A DNA stretch of 64,000 nucleotides from GCF_054482525.1 NZ_CM137006.1; one strand, 5' to 3'. Shown: positions 3,267-55,779, counted from the stretch's first letter. Notes: generated from the sequence alone by a model not told the origin. Program-made: numbers and translations.

Positions 3267-6200
3267 TGTCGCCGAGACATTAGATCCTTTGCGCTTGCCC
3301 TTACAGGGCGAGCGCCTGATTGAAGCCTCTGCCGGCACAGGCAAAACCTTTACGATTGCGGCGCTCTATTTGCGCCTGTTACTTGGACTAGGCGGTTCTG
3401 CCGCCTTTCCCCGCCCGCTGACCGTTGAAGAACTGCTGGTGGTCACCTTTACCGAGGCTGCCACGGCAGAATTGCGCGGTCGTATCCGTAGCAATATCCA
3501 CGAGTTGCGCATCGCCTGTCTGCGTGAAACCACCGACAATCCACTGTACGAACGCCTACTGGAAGAGATCGACGATAAAGCGCAAGCCGCGCAGTGGTTG
3601 TTGTTAGCCGAACGGCAGATGGATGAAGCGGCAGTCTTTACTATTCACGGTTTTTGCCAGCGCATGCTCAACCTGAATGCCTTTGAATCCGGCATGCTGT
3701 TTGAGCAGCAGCTGATTGAAGATGAGTCTCTGCTACGCTACCAGGCCTGCGCCGATTTCTGGCGTCGCTACTGCTACCCGCTGCCGCGTGAAATTGCCCA
3801 GGTCGTCTTTGAAACCTGGAAAGGACCGCAGGCGTTGCTGCGCGATATTAATCGTTATCTGCAAGGCGAAGCGCCGGTTATCAAAGCGCCGCCGCCCGAT
3901 GATGAAACGCTGGCTTCCCGCCACGCGCAAATTGTGGCGCGTATTGATACGGTAAAACAGCAGTGGCGCGACGCGGTGGGTGAACTGGATGCGCTGATCG
4001 AATCTTCTGGTATTGATCGACGCAAGTTTAACCGTAGCAATCAGGCTAAATGGATCGAGAAGATCAGCGCCTGGGCAGAAGAAGAGACCAACAGTTATCA
4101 GTTGCCAGAGTCGCTGGAAAAATTCTCTCAGCGTTTCTTAGAAGATCGCACGAAAGCCGGGGGGGAAACCCCGCGACATCCACTGTTTGAGGCGATCGAT
4201 CAACTGCTTGCAGAACCATTGTCGATCCGCGATCTGGTGATCACCCGCGCATTGGCTGAGATCCGCGAAACAGTAGCGCGTGAAAAACGCCGCCGTGGCG
4301 AATTGGGTTTTGATGACATGTTAAGTCGGCTCGATTCCGCGCTGCGTAGCGAAAGCGGCGAGGTGTTGGCAGCGGCGATCCGTACGCGATTCCCGGTGGC
4401 AATGATCGATGAATTTCAGGATACCGACCCCCAGCAGTACCGAATTTTTCGCCGTATCTGGCACCATCAGCCGGAAACCGCATTGTTGCTGATTGGCGAC
4501 CCGAAACAGGCCATTTATGCATTCCGGGGTGCGGATATCTTCACTTATATGAAGGCGCGTAGCGAAGTTCACGCCCACTACACTTTAGACACCAACTGGC
4601 GTTCCGCACCAGGAATGGTGAATAGTGTGAACAAGCTTTTCAGTCAGACTGATGACGCGTTCATGTTTCGCGAAATTCCTTTTATTCCAGTGAAATCAGC
4701 CGGGAAAAATCAGGCGTTACGTTTTGTCTTTAAAGGTGAAACGCAGCCTGCGATGAAAATGTGGCTGATGGAAGGCGAAAGCTGCGGCGTTGGCGACTAT
4801 CAAAGTACCATGGCGCAGGTATGTGCTGCGCAAATCCGCGACTGGCTACAAGCCGGACAGCGGGGCGAAGCGTTGCTGATGAACGGCGACGACGCGCGTC
4901 CGGTGCGTGCTTCGGACATCAGTGTGCTGGTGCGCAGCCGCCAGGAGGCCGCCCAGGTGCGCGACGCCTTAACGTTGCTGGAAATCCCTTCCGTTTACCT
5001 TTCGAACCGCGACAGTGTTTTTGAAACTCTGGAAGCGCAGGAAATGCTTTGGTTGTTGCAGGCGGTGATGACGCCCGAACGTGAGAACACCCTGCGTAGT
5101 GCGCTGGCAACGTCAATGATGGGGCTGAACGCGCTGGATATCGAAACGCTGAACAATGACGAACATGCGTGGGATGCGGTAGTCGAAGAGTTCGATGGTT
5201 ATCGGCAAATCTGGCGCAAACGTGGCGTTATGCCGATGCTGCGGGCGCTGATGTCGGCGCGTAACATTGCTGAAAACTTGCTGGCAACGGCAGGCGGTGA
5301 GCGGCGTCTTACCGATATCTTGCATATCAGCGAACTGCTACAAGAAGCCGGAACGCAGCTGGAAAGTGAACATGCGCTGGTACGCTGGTTATCGCAACAT
5401 ATCCTCGAGCCAGACAGTAATGCCTCCAGCCAACAAATGCGCCTCGAAAGTGATAAACATCTGGTGCAGATTGTCACGATCCATAAATCAAAAGGGCTGG
5501 AATATCCGCTGGTCTGGTTGCCATTTATTACCAATTTCCGCGTCCAGGATCAGGCGTTCTATCACGATCGCCACTCGTTTGAGGCTGTTCTGGATCTTAA
5601 TGCTGCGCCAGAAAGTGTCGATCTCGCGGAGGCCGAACGTCTGGCGGAAGATCTGCGTTTGCTTTACGTGGCGCTGACACGTTCGGTTTGGCATTGCAGT
5701 CTCGGCGTTGCACCGCTGGTGCGCCGTCGTGGCGATAAAAAAGGTGACACCGACGTCCACCAAAGTGCGCTCGGGCGTTTGCTGCAAAAAGGGGAACCGC
5801 AAGATGCGGCAGGGCTTCGCACCTGTATTGAAGCGTTATGCGATGATGATATTGCCTGGCAAACGGCACAAACGGGTGATAACCAGCCCTGGCAGGTTAA
5901 TGATGCTTTAACTGCAGAACTGAATGCGAGGACGCTACAACGATTGCCCGGCGATAACTGGCGTGTCACCAGCTACTCCGGTTTGCAGCAGCGTGGTCAC
6001 GGTATCGCTCAGGATCTGATGCCACGGCTGGATGTTGATGCCGCAGGCGTGGTCAGCGTCGTTGAAGAACCGACGTTAACACCGCATCAGTTCCCGCGCG
6101 GTGCGTCACCAGGGACATTCTTGCACAGTTTGTTTGAAGACCTCGATTTTACCCAGCCGGTTGACCCGAACTGGGTACAGGAAAAACTGGAACTCGGCGG

Positions 6201-11579: not shown

Positions 11580-11656
<77 letters not shown>

Positions 11657-11688
11657 TCACCGTACTGCTTTATTTCATCAAATTTGAT

Positions 11689-11765
<77 letters not shown>

Positions 11766-11798
11766 TCACCGTACTGCTTTACTTCATCAAATTTTAAT

Positions 11799-11875
<77 letters not shown>

Positions 11876-16197: not shown

Positions 16198-16403
16198 AAA
16201 AAAAAGCACCGCAATTAGGCGGTGCTACATTAATCACTATGGACAGACAGGGTAAATGTACAGGAAGTGAAAAAAGGTAGCTTTGCTACCATGGTCTGAA
16301 TCGCAGACCAATTGCAAACACAACAACACAACATCACAACCGTAAGCCAAAAGTTCACCAGAACACGCATTCCGATAAAACTTTTCGTTCCGGCTCAGGA
16401 AGT
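16198..16403 (-). ncRNA. gcvB: GcvB small regulatory RNA (Hfq-dependent, represses amino-acid/peptide transporters)
   Basis: 206-nt sequence recognised (5' ACTTCCTGAGCCGGAACGAAAAGTTTTATCGG... 3' GCACCGCCTAATTGCGGTGCTTTTTTTT on minus strand); G/U-rich target-binding regions; intrinsic terminator; divergent from gcvA. Confidence 0.9.
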
Positions 16404-34619: not shown

Positions 34620-34988
34620 TTCGTCGACAGGGAGTCAGACAACGAAGTGAACATCAGGATGATGACACTTCTGAAGGACACACCAGGATGGTGTTTCAGG
34701 GAAAGGCTTCTGGATGAAGCGAAGAGGATGACGCAGGACGCGTTAAAGGACACCTCCAGGATGGAGAATGAGAACCGGTCAGGATGATTCGGTGGGTCAG
34801 GAAGGCCAGGGACACTTCAGGATGAAGTATCACATCGGGGTGGTGTGAGCAGGAAGCAATAGTTCAGGATGAACGATTGGCCGCAAGGCCAGAGGAAAAG
34901 TTGTCAAGGATGAGCAGGGAGCAACAAAAGTAGCTGGAATGCTGCGAAACGAACCGGGAGCACTGTGAATACAGTGCTCCCTTTTTTT
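34620..34988 (+). ncRNA. csrB: CsrB small RNA (CsrA-sequestering sRNA)
   Basis: About 369 nt with roughly 20 GGA-containing motifs (CAGGAUG/AGGA) in predicted loops; ends in GGGAGCACTGTGAATACAGTGCTCCC hairpin plus T7 terminator; 5' end approximate. Confidence 0.9.
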
Positions 34989-35033
34989 ATTCCTGCTATC
35001 CTTCGCGGCAGTTTTTCTTATTGAGGTTGCTTT

Positions 35034-45496: not shown

Positions 45497-47731
45497 ATGG
45501 TTGCGGTAAGAAGTGCACATATCAATAAGGCTGGTGAATTTGATCCGGAAAAATGGATCGCAAGTCTGGGTATTACCAGCCAGAAGTCGTGTGAGTGCTT
45601 AGCCGAAACCTGGGCGTATTGTCTGCAACAGACGCAGGGGCATCCGGATGCCAGTCTGTTATTGTGGCGTGGTGTTGAGATGGTGGAGATCCTCTCGACA
45701 TTAAGTATGGACATTGACACGCTGCGGGCGGCGCTGTTGTTCCCTCTGGCCGATGCCAACGTAGTCAGCGAAGATGTGCTGCGTGAGAGCGTCGGTAAGT
45801 CGGTCGTTAACCTTATTCACGGCGTGCGTGATATGGCGGCGATCCGCCAGCTGAAAGCGACGCATACCGATTCTGTTTCCTCCGAACAGGTCGATAACGT
45901 TCGCCGGATGTTATTGGCGATGGTCGATGATTTTCGCTGCGTGGTCATCAAACTGGCAGAGCGTATTGCTCATCTGCGCGAAGTAAAAGATGCGCCGGAA
46001 GATGAACGTGTACTGGCGGCAAAAGAGTGCACCAATATCTACGCGCCGTTGGCGAACCGTCTTGGGATTGGGCAACTGAAATGGGAGCTGGAAGATTACT
46101 GCTTCCGTTATCTCCACCCGACCGAATACAAACGCATCGCAAAACTGCTGCATGAACGCCGTCTCGACCGCGAACACTATATCGAAGAGTTTGTCGGCCA
46201 TCTGCGCGCTGAGATGAAAGCTGAAGGCGTTAAAGCTGAAGTGTATGGTCGACCGAAACACATCTACAGCATCTGGCGCAAAATGCAGAAAAAGAACCTC
46301 GCCTTCGATGAGCTGTTTGATGTGCGTGCGGTACGTATTGTCGCCGAGCGTTTACAGGATTGTTATGCCGCACTGGGGATAGTGCACACTCACTATCGCC
46401 ACCTGCCGGATGAGTTTGACGATTACGTCGCTAACCCGAAACCAAACGGTTATCAGTCTATTCATACCGTGGTTCTGGGACCGGGTGGAAAAACCGTTGA
46501 GATCCAAATCCGCACTAAACAGATGCATGAAGATGCAGAGTTGGGTGTTGCTGCGCACTGGAAATATAAAGAGGGCGCGGCAGCTGGCGGCGCACGTTCG
46601 GGACATGAAGACCGGATTGCCTGGCTGCGTAAACTGATTGCGTGGCAGGAAGAGATGGCTGATTCCGGCGAAATGCTCGACGAAGTACGTAGCCAGGTCT
46701 TTGACGACCGGGTGTACGTCTTTACGCCGAAAGGTGATGTCGTTGATTTGCCTGCGGGATCAACACCGCTGGACTTCGCTTACCACATCCACAGTGATGT
46801 CGGACACCGCTGCATCGGGGCAAAAATTGGCGGGCGCATTGTGCCGTTCACCTACCAGCTGCAGATGGGCGACCAGATTGAAATTATCACCCAGAAACAG
46901 CCGAACCCCAGCCGTGACTGGTTAAACCCAAACCTCGGTTACGTCACAACCAGCCGTGGGCGTTCGAAAATTCACGCCTGGTTCCGTAAACAGGACCGTG
47001 ACAAAAACGTTCTGGCTGGGCGGCAAATCCTTGACGACGAGCTGGAACATCTGGGGATCAGCCTGAAAGAAGCAGAAAAACATCTGCTGCCGCGTTACAA
47101 CTTCAATGATGTCGACGAGTTGCTGGCGGCGATTGGTGGCGGGGATATCCGTCTCAATCAGATGGTGAACTTCCTGCAATCGCAATTTAATAAGCCGAGT
47201 GCCGAAGAGCAGGACGCCGCCGCGCTGAAGCAACTTCAGCAAAAAAGCTACACGCCGCAAAACCGCAGTAAAGATAACGGTCGAGTGGTAGTAGAAGGTG
47301 TCGGTAACCTGATGCACCACATCGCGCGCTGCTGCCAGCCGATCCCTGGAGATGAGATTGTCGGCTTCATTACCCAGGGACGCGGTATTTCAGTACACCG
47401 CGCCGATTGCGAACAACTGGCGGAACTGCGCTCCCATGCGCCAGAACGTATTGTTGATGCGGTATGGGGCGAGAGCTACTCCGCCGGATATTCGCTGGTG
47501 GTCCGCGTGGTGGCTAATGATCGTAGTGGGTTGTTACGTGATATCACGACCATTCTCGCCAATGAGCAAGTGAACGTGCTTGGCGTTGCCAGCCGTAGCG
47601 ATACCAAACAGCAACTGGCGACCATCGACATGACCATTGAGATTTACAACCTGCAAGTGCTGGGCCGCGTGCTGGGTAAACTCAACCAGGTGCCGGATGT
47701 TATCGACGCGCGTCGGTTGCACGGGAGTTAG
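45497..47731 (+). CDS. relA: GTP pyrophosphokinase, (p)ppGpp synthetase I
   Basis: 744 aa; sequence recognised. Confidence 0.95.
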   Translation: MVAVRSAHINKAGEFDPEKWIASLGITSQKSCECLAETWAYCLQQTQGHPDASLLLWRGVEMVEILSTLSMDIDTLRAALLFPLADANVVSEDVLRESVGKSVVNLIHGVRDMAAIRQLKATHTDSVSSEQVDNVRRMLLAMVDDFRCVVIKLAERIAHLREVKDAPEDERVLAAKECTNIYAPLANRLGIGQLKWELEDYCFRYLHPTEYKRIAKLLHERRLDREHYIEEFVGHLRAEMKAEGVKAEVYGRPKHIYSIWRKMQKKNLAFDELFDVRAVRIVAERLQDCYAALGIVHTHYRHLPDEFDDYVANPKPNGYQSIHTVVLGPGGKTVEIQIRTKQMHEDAELGVAAHWKYKEGAAAGGARSGHEDRIAWLRKLIAWQEEMADSGEMLDEVRSQVFDDRVYVFTPKGDVVDLPAGSTPLDFAYHIHSDVGHRCIGAKIGGRIVPFTYQLQMGDQIEIITQKQPNPSRDWLNPNLGYVTTSRGRSKIHAWFRKQDRDKNVLAGRQILDDELEHLGISLKEAEKHLLPRYNFNDVDELLAAIGGGDIRLNQMVNFLQSQFNKPSAEEQDAAALKQLQQKSYTPQNRSKDNGRVVVEGVGNLMHHIARCCQPIPGDEIVGFITQGRGISVHRADCEQLAELRSHAPERIVDAVWGESYSAGYSLVVRVVANDRSGLLRDITTILANEQVNVLGVASRSDTKQQLATIDMTIEIYNLQVLGRVLGKLNQVPDVIDARRLHGS

Positions 47732-47740
47732 TCTTACATA

Positions 47741-47781
47741 GCTGGATATGGCGTCAGCCGTATCCAGCGATATCTTTTACT
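47741..47781 (+). terminator. Putative relA-distal hairpin / terminator
   Basis: GCTGGATA-12 nt loop-TATCCAGC followed by U-rich GATATCTTTT. Confidence 0.4.
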
Positions 47782-47826
47782 CGAAGGTATTACACCTGAC
47801 AGACCCGCAATTTTCAGGACAATTCA

Positions 47827-48618
47827 ATGAATCAAATCGACCGTTTGCTCACTATTATGCAGCGCCTGCGCGATCCGGAAAACGGCTGCCCGTGGGATAA
47901 AGAGCAGACATTTGCCACCATTGCGCCTTACACCCTTGAAGAAACCTACGAAGTGCTGGACGCCATTGCCCGTGAAGATTTTGACGATCTGCGCGGTGAA
48001 CTCGGCGATCTGCTGTTCCAGGTGGTGTTTTACGCACAAATGGCCCAGGAAGAAGGGCGCTTTGACTTTAATGATATTTGCGCCGCGATCAGCGATAAAT
48101 TAGAACGTCGCCATCCGCATGTTTTTGCTGACAGTTCTGCCGAAAACAGTAGTGAAGTGCTTGCCCGTTGGGAGCAAATCAAAACCGAAGAGCGCGCGCA
48201 GAAAGCGCAGCATTCGGTGCTGGACGATATTCCTCGTAGTTTACCGGCTTTAATGCGTGCGCAAAAAATCCAGAAACGTTGCGCCAACGTTGGTTTTGAC
48301 TGGACGACGCTTGGCCCGGTAGTCGATAAAGTCTACGAAGAGATCGATGAGGTGATGTACGAAGCGCGGCAGGCTGTTGTCGACCAGGCTAAACTGGAGG
48401 AGGAAATGGGTGACCTGCTGTTTGCCACAGTCAATCTGGCTCGTCATTTAGGGACAAAAGCGGAAATCGCATTGCAAAAAGCGAACGAAAAATTCGAGCG
48501 TCGTTTTCGCGAAGTGGAGCGTATTGTTGCCGCGCGTGGACTGGAAATGACAGGTGTTGACCCCGAAACAATGGAAGAAGTCTGGCAACAGGTAAAACGG
48601 CAGGAAATTGATCTCTAA
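47827..48618 (+). CDS. mazG: Nucleoside triphosphate pyrophosphohydrolase MazG
   Basis: 263 aa; tandem MazG domains; immediately follows relA with no mazEF between. Confidence 0.93.
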   Translation: MNQIDRLLTIMQRLRDPENGCPWDKEQTFATIAPYTLEETYEVLDAIAREDFDDLRGELGDLLFQVVFYAQMAQEEGRFDFNDICAAISDKLERRHPHVFADSSAENSSEVLARWEQIKTEERAQKAQHSVLDDIPRSLPALMRAQKIQKRCANVGFDWTTLGPVVDKVYEEIDEVMYEARQAVVDQAKLEEEMGDLLFATVNLARHLGTKAEIALQKANEKFERRFREVERIVAARGLEMTGVDPETMEEVWQQVKRQEIDL

Positions 48619-52800: not shown

Positions 52801-53093
52801 TATAAATGTCTCATTAAATCTGGATAAATAAATTGACGGCGGCATCGGTAATTTGAGATTCGTTATAATTAAAAACGAACACAGAAAAAATAAGTATAAT
52901 TTTGGTGAATGTTTTTGACATGATTAAATCCCTTTACTTTATTTATTTCTGACATAATACGTTACCCCCTTTTATTATTAACGATCTGTTTCTCATTTTT
53001 CTTTAAACCTGCCTGTAACAGAATGTTAATAAGACATGATTGTTGTGGCAGGATCTGCAATAATTAACAATTATCCACTTCACAGAGAATGCT

Positions 53094-53765
53094 ATGCAGT
53101 ACCCGATTAACGAGATGTTCCAGACCCTGCAAGGTGAGGGTTACTTTACCGGCGTCCCCGCCATTTTTATTCGTTTACAGGGATGCCCGGTTGGCTGTGC
53201 CTGGTGCGACACCAAACACACCTGGGAAAAGCTTGAGGATCGGGAAGTTTCCCTTTTCAGCATTCTGGGTAAAACGAAAGAGAGTGATAAGTGGGGAGCA
53301 GCAAGCAGTGAAGACTTACTCGCAGTCATCGGTCGTCAGGGATACACCGCGCGTCACGTGGTGATTACGGGTGGTGAACCTTGTATTCATGATTTGCTGC
53401 CACTGACTGACCTGCTCGAAAAGAACGGTTTCAGTTGTCAGATAGAAACCAGCGGTACTCATGAAGTGCGTTGTACGCCGAATACCTGGGTCACCGTGTC
53501 GCCAAAGCTAAATATGCGTGGTGGTTATGAAGTATTGTCGCAAGCCCTGGAGCGAGCTAACGAAATTAAACACCCAGTTGGACGTGTACGTGATATCGAA
53601 GCACTGGATGAATTGCTTGCGACGCTGACCGATGATAAACCGCGAGTCATTGCACTGCAGCCGATTAGCCAAAAGGATGATGCCACACGTTTGTGCATTG
53701 AAACTTGCATTGCGCGTAACTGGCGTTTGTCGATGCAAACACATAAATATTTAAATATTGCCTGA
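53094..53765 (+). CDS. queE: 7-carboxy-7-deazaguanine synthase (radical SAM)
   Basis: 223 aa; CxxxCxxC-type cluster motif CPVGCAWC. Confidence 0.92.
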   Translation: MQYPINEMFQTLQGEGYFTGVPAIFIRLQGCPVGCAWCDTKHTWEKLEDREVSLFSILGKTKESDKWGAASSEDLLAVIGRQGYTARHVVITGGEPCIHDLLPLTDLLEKNGFSCQIETSGTHEVRCTPNTWVTVSPKLNMRGGYEVLSQALERANEIKHPVGRVRDIEALDELLATLTDDKPRVIALQPISQKDDATRLCIETCIARNWRLSMQTHKYLNIA

Positions 53766-54039
53766 TTACACATTTATATGCGTTATAAATGGGTGGAACC
53801 TGTAAAGACTTCCACTCATTTATATTTTTTGTCGCCTCTGAAAACTCATCCATTTTGCCCATTCCGGACTAATCATTGTCATTCTCTACAAATTCTGTGG
53901 CGTTAATTTTTCTCTGGGGTGAAAATTATTGCGGTAAAGTTTGGTAGATTTTAGTCGGTATAGGATTACTTTAAATATTTAGCTTTTCAATCAATGAATT
54001 AAGTGCTCTTTAACATAATGGATGTGTTGTTTGTGTGAT

Positions 54040-54104
54040 ACTGTAAAGTTGGTAGATTGTGACTGGCTTAAAAAATCATTAATTAATAATAGGTTATGTT
54101 TAGA
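54040..54104 (+). promoter_or_regulatory. AT-rich CRISPR leader
   Basis: TTAATTAATAATAGGTTATGTTTAGA immediately precedes the first repeat. Confidence 0.5.
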
Positions 54105-54255
54105 GAGTTCCCCGCGCGAGCGGGGATAAACCGAAAACCACGACCTGGCGATCGGCGTGCTGGATGAGTTTCCCGCGCGAGCGGGGATAAACCGGATAGG
54201 TGTTACACATATGACCAGGCACTGGCGAGTTCCCCGCGTCAGCGGGGATAACCAT
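54105..54255 (+). CRISPR. Minimal type I-E CRISPR array: 3 repeats (last degenerate), 2 spacers of 32 bp
   Basis: Repeats GAGTTCCCCGCGCGAGCGGGGATAAACCG (54105-54133), GAGTTTCCCGCGCGAGCGGGGATAAACCG (54166-54194), degenerate GAGTTCCCCGCGTCAGCGGGGATAACC.. (54227-54255); spacers 54134-54165 and 54195-54226. Confidence 0.85.
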
Positions 54256-54268
54256 TCAGGTATGTTCA

Positions 54269-54292
54269 GGCCGGGCAGTTTCCCGCCCGGCC
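54269..54292. terminator. GC-rich hairpin between CRISPR array and ygcE stop
   Basis: GGCCGGGC-agtttccc-GCCCGGCC; no clear U-tract on either strand. Confidence 0.35.
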
Positions 54293-54300
54293 TTCCTCAC

Positions 54301-55779
54301 TTACGCATTCGACCAGCTCTGGATCGAATCTTCATTCCCCAGCTCACCATGCATCACTTCATACGATTTTTTCAGGATCACATCAGTGTGCTTGGTTAGG
54401 TCTTTGAAAATGCCTTTATTCATCGCGTCGTAGCGTTTGGCATTGCTCTCAACAGGCATAAAGATATCTTTCACGCGAACCATTTTGTCGACAGCCGTTG
54501 CGTAATCCGGGTATAGCCCCAGACCTACCGCCGTATTAATCGCTGCCCCCAGACTTGCACAACCATTAATGGCGTTACGGCGTGCCGGAAGGTTGAACAC
54601 GTCGGCAAAAATCTGCATAAACAGATCGCTGTTCGAACCGCCGCCAGTAATGATCACATGCTTTGCAAAGTGATTCATTTCATTACACATATTGTCGTAA
54701 TTGTTCTTCAGCGTCAGCGCCACGCTTTCCAGTATCGAACGATATATCCATGCGTAATCCATGCTGGAATCAAAGCCGATCATAATCCCGCGTTTGTACG
54801 GTTCCCACGGATTGGTCAGCCAGTCCAGCACCGTCATCAGCCCATTACAGCCAGGTGGCACACTAGAGGCTTTCTTGTTGAGTAAATCTTCCGGTGAAAG
54901 ATCCTGCGCCCTGGCATCCTGAATTAACGACTCGCCTAACATGTCGCGTAGCCAGCTCACCGTCCACATGCCTTTGCGAATACCGTAACCTTCATACAGC
55001 AAGGTTTGCGGAATAGAAGACATAATCGGCCAGTACGCTACCGGATCTTTCGGCAGTGCTTTACCGTTCATCATCAGCGCGATGTAGGTGCCAAGAGAAA
55101 TCACCGCCGTTTCATCATCCAGTAATCCGGCTCCCAGAGCTTCTACCGGTTTATCACTGGTGGTACAAACAACCGGCAGCCCTGCTGGGAAATGTGTCGC
55201 CAGCGCGGCTTGAGGAGTGATATGCCCAAGAACAGTGCCCGGCATTTGCACATCAAACAGCATATGACGGGGGATATTAAACTTCTCCATGACTGCGGCA
55301 TCTTCACTCCATGCCCAGGTCTTATAATCCACCGGCCACTGACCAAAATAGTTGGCGATATTATCTTTAAACTCGCCGGTTAAGCGATGCGTCAGATAAC
55401 CTGAAAAAGAGGTGACATAGGCCACGTCAGGATTCGTATGTTCGTAAGGGCGTGTAACGCGTGCATCCTGCCAGCTGATCAACGGTGCAGCTGGCGTGCC
55501 ATCGGCTTTCAATAACGCACGGCAGCAACGGATGGATCCCAGACCAATACCGACAATATCGTCTTTATTCCCGGCAAACTGACTCATCAAATCGTGACCG
55601 GCAAAACATAATGATGCCCATAAATCGTCGTCAGGATGTTCTGCAGTATCGGCATCTGGCGTGTGCATCGGCTGTAATAAGCCTTTGCCTTCGCAAACCA
55701 CGTTACCTTCCAGATCGTACATCACCACTTTTGTGCTCTGACTTCCGCCATCAATCCCTATGATGTATTTTTTCGACAT
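54301..55779 (-). CDS. ygcE: FGGY-family carbohydrate kinase (glycerol kinase-like)
   Basis: 492 aa; FGGY N- and C-terminal domains; 26 nt after yqcE stop. Confidence 0.88.
   Translation of the reverse strand: MSKKYIIGIDGGSQSTKVVMYDLEGNVVCEGKGLLQPMHTPDADTAEHPDDDLWASLCFAGHDLMSQFAGNKDDIVGIGLGSIRCCRALLKADGTPAAPLISWQDARVTRPYEHTNPDVAYVTSFSGYLTHRLTGEFKDNIANYFGQWPVDYKTWAWSEDAAVMEKFNIPRHMLFDVQMPGTVLGHITPQAALATHFPAGLPVVCTTSDKPVEALGAGLLDDETAVISLGTYIALMMNGKALPKDPVAYWPIMSSIPQTLLYEGYGIRKGMWTVSWLRDMLGESLIQDARAQDLSPEDLLNKKASSVPPGCNGLMTVLDWLTNPWEPYKRGIMIGFDSSMDYAWIYRSILESVALTLKNNYDNMCNEMNHFAKHVIITGGGSNSDLFMQIFADVFNLPARRNAINGCASLGAAINTAVGLGLYPDYATAVDKMVRVKDIFMPVESNAKRYDAMNKGIFKDLTKHTDVILKKSYEVMHGELGNEDSIQSWSNA

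Follow-up and report, generated by a model that had tools for sequence, protein, structure and literature searches.

A minimal type I-E CRISPR array between queE and ygcE in an Escherichia coli lineage whose closest relatives lack cas-E genes

Does a CRISPR array of only two spacers, situated between queE and ygcE and with no cas genes in the surrounding DNA, belong to a working type I-E system, or is it what remains of one? The question is raised by a 64,000-nt stretch of DNA (GCF_054482525.1, NZ_CM137006.1), here called the window, in which a sequence-only reading had noticed three 29-bp repeats ending in a degenerate copy and preceded by an AT-rich leader, and had proposed either a decayed or inactive CRISPR-Cas system or a recent loss of spacers. 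The analysis described here suggests that the locus is very probably a silent relic, a CRISPR-II array of the CRISPR2.2-3 form in a lineage which resembles PCN033 and has lost its cas-E genes.

A repeat search of the window found three copies of a 29-nt unit on the plus strand: repeat 1, which adjoins the leader (54105-54133, GAGTTCCCCGCGCGAGCGGGGATAAACCG), repeat 2 (54166-54194, GAGTTTCCCGCGCGAGCGGGGATAAACCG) and a degenerate terminal repeat (54227-54255, GAGTTCCCCGCGTCAGCGGGGATAACCAT). The start-to-start distances are 61 and 61 nt, and the copies are 100%, 97% and 83% identical to the first one. The core GTTCCCCGCGNNAGCGGGGATAA, with at most one mismatch allowed, occurs three times in the 64-kb window, always within the array, and had no match in any of 100 dinucleotide-preserving shuffles of the window. 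Between the repeats lie two 32-nt spacers on the same strand, S1 (54134-54165, AAAACCACGACCTGGCGATCGGCGTGCTGGAT) and S2 (54195-54226, GATAGGTGTTACACATATGACCAGGCACTGGC), the latter being the most leader-distal; the two are unrelated to each other in sequence, and both are as quoted in the sequence-only reading. Relative to the CRISPR2 consensus GWGTTCCCCGCGCCAGCGGGGATAAACCG the three repeats have 1, 2 and 4 substitutions, respectively. The terminal copy diverges at its 3' end (...ATAACCAT) and has a GTCA loop. Tandem Repeats Finder reported nothing at the array site, which is expected and does not speak against the periodicity, because a 61-nt period containing 32 nt of unique spacer falls below the similarity threshold of the program. 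An Rfam scan of the array region, at gathering and E-value thresholds, returned no CRISPR repeat family and only chance microRNA-like matches with E > 1. The PGAP annotation is without an array in all three genomes that carry the same one (PCN033, SCU-102 and 19KM1776). Taken together, this is a type I-E (CRISPR2) array and corresponds to the CRISPR-II locus of E. coli, in the form with one array only that is known as CRISPR2.2-3.

On the leader side the array is flanked by queE (ygcF; 53094-53765, plus strand), a 223-aa ORF annotated as queE by RefSeq in the identical sequence of PCN033, and on the trailer side by ygcE (54301-55779, minus strand), a 492-aa ORF annotated as an FGGY-family kinase and convergent with the array. 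The repeat search and the ORFs thus agree with the position between queE and ygcE that had been assigned to the three repeats. The complete intergenic sequence between queE and repeat 1 (53766-54104, plus strand) is a leader of the CRISPR2.3 type, of which the last ~60-110 nt (53995-54104) are relevant for spacer uptake. Its AT-rich character was borne out by an A+T content of 71% in the last 100 nt, compared with 49% in the whole window. Over 339 nt this leader is 93.2% identical to the K-12 CRISPR-II leader, and towards the repeat the identity rises to 99/100 (last 100 nt) and 60/60 (last 60 nt); 60 bp is the minimum leader length for spacer uptake (PMC3384332). The last 110 nt are identical (110/110) to those of the cas-positive strain MEI003. 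Within the last 100 nt the leader departs from K-12 at one position only, 54043, where the A of K-12 is replaced by G (TACTAT to TACTGT), in the hexamer at -66 to -61 which, according to Yosef et al., is the -10 box of the array promoter (PMC3384332). MEI003 has the same G, and since this strain is cas-positive, the substitution is probably tolerated. A consensus promoter and terminator scan found no more sites than in shuffled sequence, and none on the array strand.

Just past the ygcE stop codon there is a G+C-rich trailer hairpin (54268-54293, strand not assigned) with a 9-bp stem (-20.6 kcal/mol, z = -4.3), which is also conserved in K-12. As a T-tract is absent from both strands, a terminator role of this hairpin is only a guess. 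More informative for the origin of the array is the terminal repeat. From position 3 onward this repeat, together with the trailer, is identical to the K-12 CRISPR2.2 terminal repeat and what follows it (ATGTTCCCCGCGTCAGCGGGGATAACCAT tcaggtatg...), whereas its 5' end reads GAG, as is typical of CRISPR2.3, versus ATG in the last K-12 CRISPR2.2 repeat. Such a hybrid repeat points to an inter-repeat crossover, which would have removed the 0.5-kb segment that lies between the two arrays of K-12.

Some features on the queE side of the locus deserve mention in their own right. The nucleotide identity of queE is only 91.5% to K-12 and 91.1% to MEI003, the values for ygcE, yqcE and ygcG being 96-98.6%; this unusual divergence beside a CRISPR leader may be due to ancient recombination in this tract or to a separate class of alleles. 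A 16-nt string in queE (GACCGATGATAAACCG, 53627-53642), located 491 nt upstream of repeat 1 and resembling the 3' half of the repeat in 13/16 positions, was considered as a remnant of CRISPR2.2 and rejected: it is coding (TDDKP), the true remnant is on the trailer side, and the resemblance is most likely due to chance. The gene yqcG (~52814-52955, minus strand), encoding in K-12 a cell envelope stress response protein, is annotated in PCN033, strain 1190 and MEI003, at the corresponding site, as a pseudogene with a frameshift.

The single position at which the repeat had been said to differ from the type I-E consensus proved to be C14->G (GCGCGAG), and the additional C to T change noticed in repeat 2 is at position 6. 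G14 is located in the tetraloop of the predicted repeat hairpin. All three repeats (3/3) are predicted to fold into a 7-bp stem with a 4-nt loop, the same shape as that of the consensus, with energies of -15.1, -12.2 and -15.1 kcal/mol for repeats 1, 2 and 3 (consensus, -15.1 kcal/mol). A 7-bp stem with a tetraloop is the substrate shape of Cas6e. In repeat 2 the C6->T substitution converts a C-G pair into a U-G wobble beside the closing U-A pair at the stem base, and the hairpin is kept. Because the equivalent repeat of strain 1190 has C6, the change is private to the PCN033 group; the weakening of the stem would be compatible with neutral drift.

Repeats with G14 are rare, being present in 40/5426 complete E. 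coli genomes. MEI003, which has an intact cas3-to-cas2e operon, carries a CRISPR-II array with 17 G14 repeats and 18 spacers; behind the G14 repeats stand one older C14 repeat and then the same terminal repeat as in the window. New repeats are templated on the leader-proximal repeat (PMC3384332). The pattern in MEI003 and this mode of copying, considered together, indicate that a mutation in the first repeat was spread by active spacer uptake. Since it occurs in 17 copies in a strain possessing all cas genes, G14 is to be regarded as a lineage marker and not as a sign of decay. Its natural copying in MEI003 also provides a small confirmation that the I-E uptake machinery tolerates the change at loop position 14.

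The sequence-only reading had suggested that the spacers may have phage or plasmid protospacers; the phage part of this suggestion held, the plasmid part did not. S1 has a 31/32 match, with ATG directly before it, in the IMG/VR contig UViG_2529293142_000021 (487-518 of the retrieved segment), inside a lambda-family portal gene (PF05136, E 3.9e-90). ATG is an accepted type I-E PAM (AWG motif). The prophage fragment bearing this protospacer has 57% G+C and gave no match in a megablast search against cultured phages, and the portal protein targeted by S1 is less than 60% identical to that of any cultured phage, the best being Citrobacter phage Chris1 and Hafnia phage yong2. The portal gene of Fels-1, which was also considered as the source of S1, matches in 26/32 positions and lacks a PAM; this candidate was superseded by the IMG/VR match. 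With position 23 left free, S1 had no match in 100,044 species-representative genomes.

Phage phiSTEC1575-Stx2k has a 29/32 match to S2 in its side tail fibre gene (PF08400; assigned to PHROG tail fibre families), and the same 29/32 match is present in 8 IMG/VR contigs and in ~40 E. coli prophages. All three mismatches (3/3) are synonymous (CGG/AGG, ACG/ACA and GCG/GCA). None of the protospacers found for S2 was exact, and the one exact match to S2 in metagenome contigs was to the same four-spacer E. coli array, not to a protospacer. As to an AAG-type PAM, which had been considered for these hits, S1 has ATG (see above), and all S2 protospacer alleles found are preceded by AAA; AAG, the synonymous Lys codon and canonical PAM, was not observed among them. 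Searches for plasmid protospacers yielded only partial matches (19-32 nt, 84-100% identical, E at least 0.4) in unrelated high-GC taxa, and these were rejected. When S1 and S2 were compared by word-11 blastn with 5426 E. coli genomes, most of which have cas-E, the matches were to CRISPR arrays and prophage tail genes only, with no cas gene among them. A second site for S1 or S2 was not found in their own genome, and with the phage matches the spacers are not limited to the host chromosome at this locus. Both spacers are of phage origin. Among the complete E. coli genomes S1 occurs in 3/5426 and S2 in 35/5426, and S2 was the last spacer in all arrays read (strain 1190, 19KM1831 and one metagenome contig). 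Being furthest from the leader, S2 is the oldest spacer if the usual order of addition applies.

Over 1.3 kb around the array the window is identical (100%) to E. coli strains PCN033, SCU-102 and 19KM1776. The window as a whole is collinear with ~3,019,029-3,082,912 of PCN033 and 99.98% identical to it over 64 kb, from which it differs by 9 substitutions and an additional tRNA-Met copy; its source is therefore very closely related to PCN033 but is not this particular assembly. The annotation of this span of PCN033 contains no cas gene, in keeping with the earlier statement that the window contains none. Taken alone this says little, because the window stops in ygcN, ~5-6 kb short of the iap-cysH interval. 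In surveyed E. coli strains cas-E genes have been described at iap-cysH only (PMC3903273). In the three genomes with the identical array (PCN033, SCU-102 and 19KM1776) cas-E genes are absent from iap-cysH, where only hok/gef is found, and strain 1190, which has S2 in common with them, shows the same arrangement. The check in PCN033 covered the two canonical cas loci (iap-cysH and clpA-infA); cas-F genes are absent from its clpA-infA interval, which holds only a two-repeat I-F mini-array. These genomes extend the orphan status of the array beyond the window, and they lend direct support to a decayed or absent CRISPR-Cas system, the first of the two options proposed for this array. Judged by its three closest relatives, the genome from which the window derives probably also lacks cas genes.

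A 501-nt probe spanning the iap-hok junction was contiguous in 1124/5426 complete E. coli genomes (about one in five), so that the cas-E-less state appears to be common. It has been described for cas-E-less E. coli that hok/sok is located in the CRISPR-I region and that the CRISPR2.3 leader is still conserved (Almendros et al. 2014, PMC3903273), and that the number of repeats is reduced (Garcia-Gutierrez et al. 2015, PMC4489801).

Spacer loss, the second option, can be seen in the same lineage. The array of 19KM1831 equals that of strain 1190 minus the third spacer and one repeat (three versus four spacers), and both strains are cas-less. By this comparison the two arrays differ by a clean inter-repeat deletion, an event for which Cas proteins are not needed.

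Several other features of the window were recorded during the comparison with PCN033. The largest difference between the two is the tRNA copy number at 11583-11875 (minus strand), where the window has three tandem tRNA genes ~110 nt apart (Rfam tRNA, 61.4 bits each) and PCN033 has two annotated tRNA-Met genes. relA (45497-47731) and mazG (47827-48618) are separated by only 95 nt (47732-47826) with mazEF absent, and PCN033 is annotated likewise; in K-12 the two genes flank the mazEF toxin-antitoxin pair. The RNA genes CsrB (34632-34991, plus strand, 382.9 bits) and GcvB (16198-16403, minus strand, 199 bits) are full length and ordinary for E. coli. In the clpA-infA interval of PCN033, outside the window, the orphan I-F mini-array (3691-3778 of the retrieved segment) consists of two repeats and one spacer, GCCAACCGAAAGAAAAACTCGATTTTTATACC. 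Hundreds of E. coli genomes contain this spacer. Its match to csy3 of I-F-positive strains (~29-30/32 positions) reproduces the phenomenon of anti-cas orphan CRISPR4 arrays, as far as it is described in PMC8616872.

The order of events that we infer from these observations is the following. An ancestor with a working I-E system would have gained spacers at the leader-proximal repeat. At some point C14->G would have arisen in the first repeat and then been copied into each new repeat. S2 would have been acquired first, from the side tail fibre gene of a temperate phage, and S1 later, from a lambda-family portal gene, likewise of a temperate phage. Through recombination between repeats the array would then have become shorter and have been linked to the terminal repeat of the former CRISPR2.2. 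CRISPR2.1 and the operon from cas3 to cas2 would have gone missing from the lineage, leaving only hok/sok between iap and cysH. With Cas6e, Cascade, Cas3 and Cas1-Cas2 missing, a leader-driven transcript would not be cut into crRNAs, there would be no interference, and the array would not grow. For the same reason the array would be a silent relic, changing only by point mutation, such as C6->T in repeat 2, and by deletion. At present the array is most likely inactive.

Inactivity of this kind would not imply damage to the array itself. To judge from their sequence, none of the cis elements is damaged: there is a leader of 60-110 nt, a first repeat predicted to form a hairpin, and spacers of 32 nt. 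In E. coli B (BL21-AI) a cas-less array grows when a plasmid supplies Cas1 and Cas2 (Yosef et al. 2012, PMC3384332), and a 60-bp leader with one repeat is enough for Cas1-Cas2-dependent acquisition (PMC3384332). By analogy with these observations, the array would probably be re-usable if cas-E were supplied in trans or regained.

A variant of this history is that orphan CRISPR-II arrays are still updated after the loss of cas, either by Cas1-Cas2 provided transiently in trans by a mobile element or by homologous replacement from cas-positive donors. The cas-less relatives sharing S2 do differ on the leader side, the PCN033 group having S1 and the group of strain 1190 three other spacers. Continued updating is nevertheless a less parsimonious explanation than differential deletion or recombination with cas-positive strains, and we consider it improbable. 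If it were true, the array with its intact leader would have to be seen as a memory that is maintained for reuse, rather than as a fossil in decay.

Another explanation would be that the array is active, with Cas-E encoded elsewhere in the genome, whether plasmid-borne or at a chromosomal site that is not canonical, and with S1 and S2 being processed and used. The intact leader, repeat hairpins and spacer lengths would fit such a state, as would the near-perfect S1 protospacer with its usable ATG PAM. To see whether plasmids carry such genes, the results of a tblastn search with Cas6e against 72,556 plasmid records can be considered: four records labelled E. coli have a near-identical (at least 95%) copy. 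Three of these four are chromosome-sized (4.8-4.9 Mb), which weighs against a plasmid location, and one, of 293 kb, does have cas-E genes. The small size of the array and the private mutation in repeat 2 also argue against activity, and so does the iap-cysH interval, the only site at which cas-E has been described in surveyed E. coli (PMC3903273), which is empty of these genes in 4/4 related genomes. On balance an active array is very unlikely. With regard to the plasmid records themselves, several "plasmid" entries of PLSDB are 4.1-4.9 Mb long, carry chromosomal cas-E genes and are evidently chromosomes, and the 293-kb E. coli record (NZ_LC542972.1), with cas6e, cas5e and cas1e, may represent either a true plasmid-borne copy or a hybrid of plasmid and chromosome.

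A role independent of Cas proteins, either as an antisense or regulatory RNA directed towards the convergent ygcE or through repeats serving as recombination or protein-binding sites, could explain the persistence of the array. It would agree with the perfect conservation of the last 60-110 nt of the leader even in cas-less strains (see also PMC3903273) and with the arrangement of the array and ygcE, which converge with only the T-tract-less hairpin between them. The conservation of the leader is, however, equally well explained by recent cas-positive ancestry and recombination with cas-positive strains, no RNA family in Rfam matched the region, and the variation in spacer content among the cas-less relatives would not be expected of a sequence-specific regulator. 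We therefore assign very little probability to this possibility.

That the orphan array could serve as an anti-cas device blocking the re-entry of type I-E genes, in the manner of CRISPR4, is brought to mind by the PCN033 background, in which the orphan I-F mini-array has a spacer matching csy3 (for the phenomenon, see the description in PMC8616872). The same comparison decides against it: GCCAACCGAAAGAAAAACTCGATTTTTATACC of PCN033, the positive control, does match csy3, whereas S1 and S2 match no cas gene across the 5426 E. coli genomes and both map to phage structural genes. An anti-cas function was rejected as extremely improbable. That the repeats arose by chance or form a tandem feature other than CRISPR, as the empty Tandem Repeats Finder and Rfam results at the site might suggest, can be practically dismissed in view of three copies versus none in 100 shuffles, the exact 61-nt spacing, repeats that are 1, 2 and 4 substitutions from the K-12 I-E consensus, and a leader homologous to that of K-12.

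The preferred explanation thus remains a silent CRISPR2.2-3 relic. An orphan array of this form in cas-E-less E. coli is an already published configuration, and RefSeq already contains this sequence; particular to this array are the spacer pair, the rare loop variant, the hybrid terminal repeat and the missing PGAP annotation. Its significance beyond annotation is small: it belongs to a PCN033-like lineage in which the closest relatives are without both cas sets. The combination of S1 and S2 and the G14 repeat can serve as a lineage marker for CRISPR typing. Provided that the cis elements are as intact as they appear to be, studies in which cas-E is reintroduced would find a ready acceptor in this strain, a principle already shown in E. 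coli B.

Comparison with known systems places the array as follows. The orphan I-F CRISPR4 arrays (Almendros et al. 2016, as summarised in PMC8616872) are similar in being tiny remnants left after loss of the cognate cas genes. According to that summary they differ in repeat family and locus and have spacers that target cas-F, whereas S1 and S2 target phage structural genes. The CRISPR-II array of MEI003 shares with the window the identical 110-nt leader, the G14 repeat and the terminal repeat, and is unlike it in having 18 spacers, none in common, and the full cas3-to-cas2e operon. BL21-AI and the window are alike in possessing an orphan I-E array with an intact leader while the interference genes are missing. 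In BL21, however, the responsive array is CRISPR I, and array II, which is without a conserved leader, does not expand, whereas in the window it is the CRISPR-II leader that is intact.

The K-12 CRISPR-II locus (CRISPR2.3 and CRISPR2.2, from ygcE to ygcF/queE) has the same site and orientation as the array in the window, and the two are alike in the last 60 nt of the leader, the family of 29-nt repeats, the 32-nt spacers, the 61-nt period, the terminal repeat and the trailer hairpin. As stated in the sequence-only reading, the K-12 array is longer: the order there is leader, CRISPR2.3 with six spacers, ~0.5 kb of AT-rich DNA, the CRISPR2.2 remnant, the G+C-rich hairpin and ygcE. In place of these two arrays the window has a single fused one, and neither of its 2 spacers is found in the K-12 arrays; its repeats carry G14 in the loop and begin with GAG, those of K-12 with GTG. 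In K-12 the cas-E operon is 24 kb from the array, whereas the closest genomes of the window are without cas-E. The closest counterparts are the CRISPR2.2-3 arrays of cas-E-less strains (PMC3903273, PMC4489801), to which the array corresponds point by point: a single array, leader 2.3 kept in the absence of cas-E, few repeats, and hok/sok in the iap-cysH interval. Nothing in it is different in kind from these arrays, and the features that are particular to the lineage are only its spacer pair (S1 in 3/5426 genomes) and its G14 repeat (40/5426).
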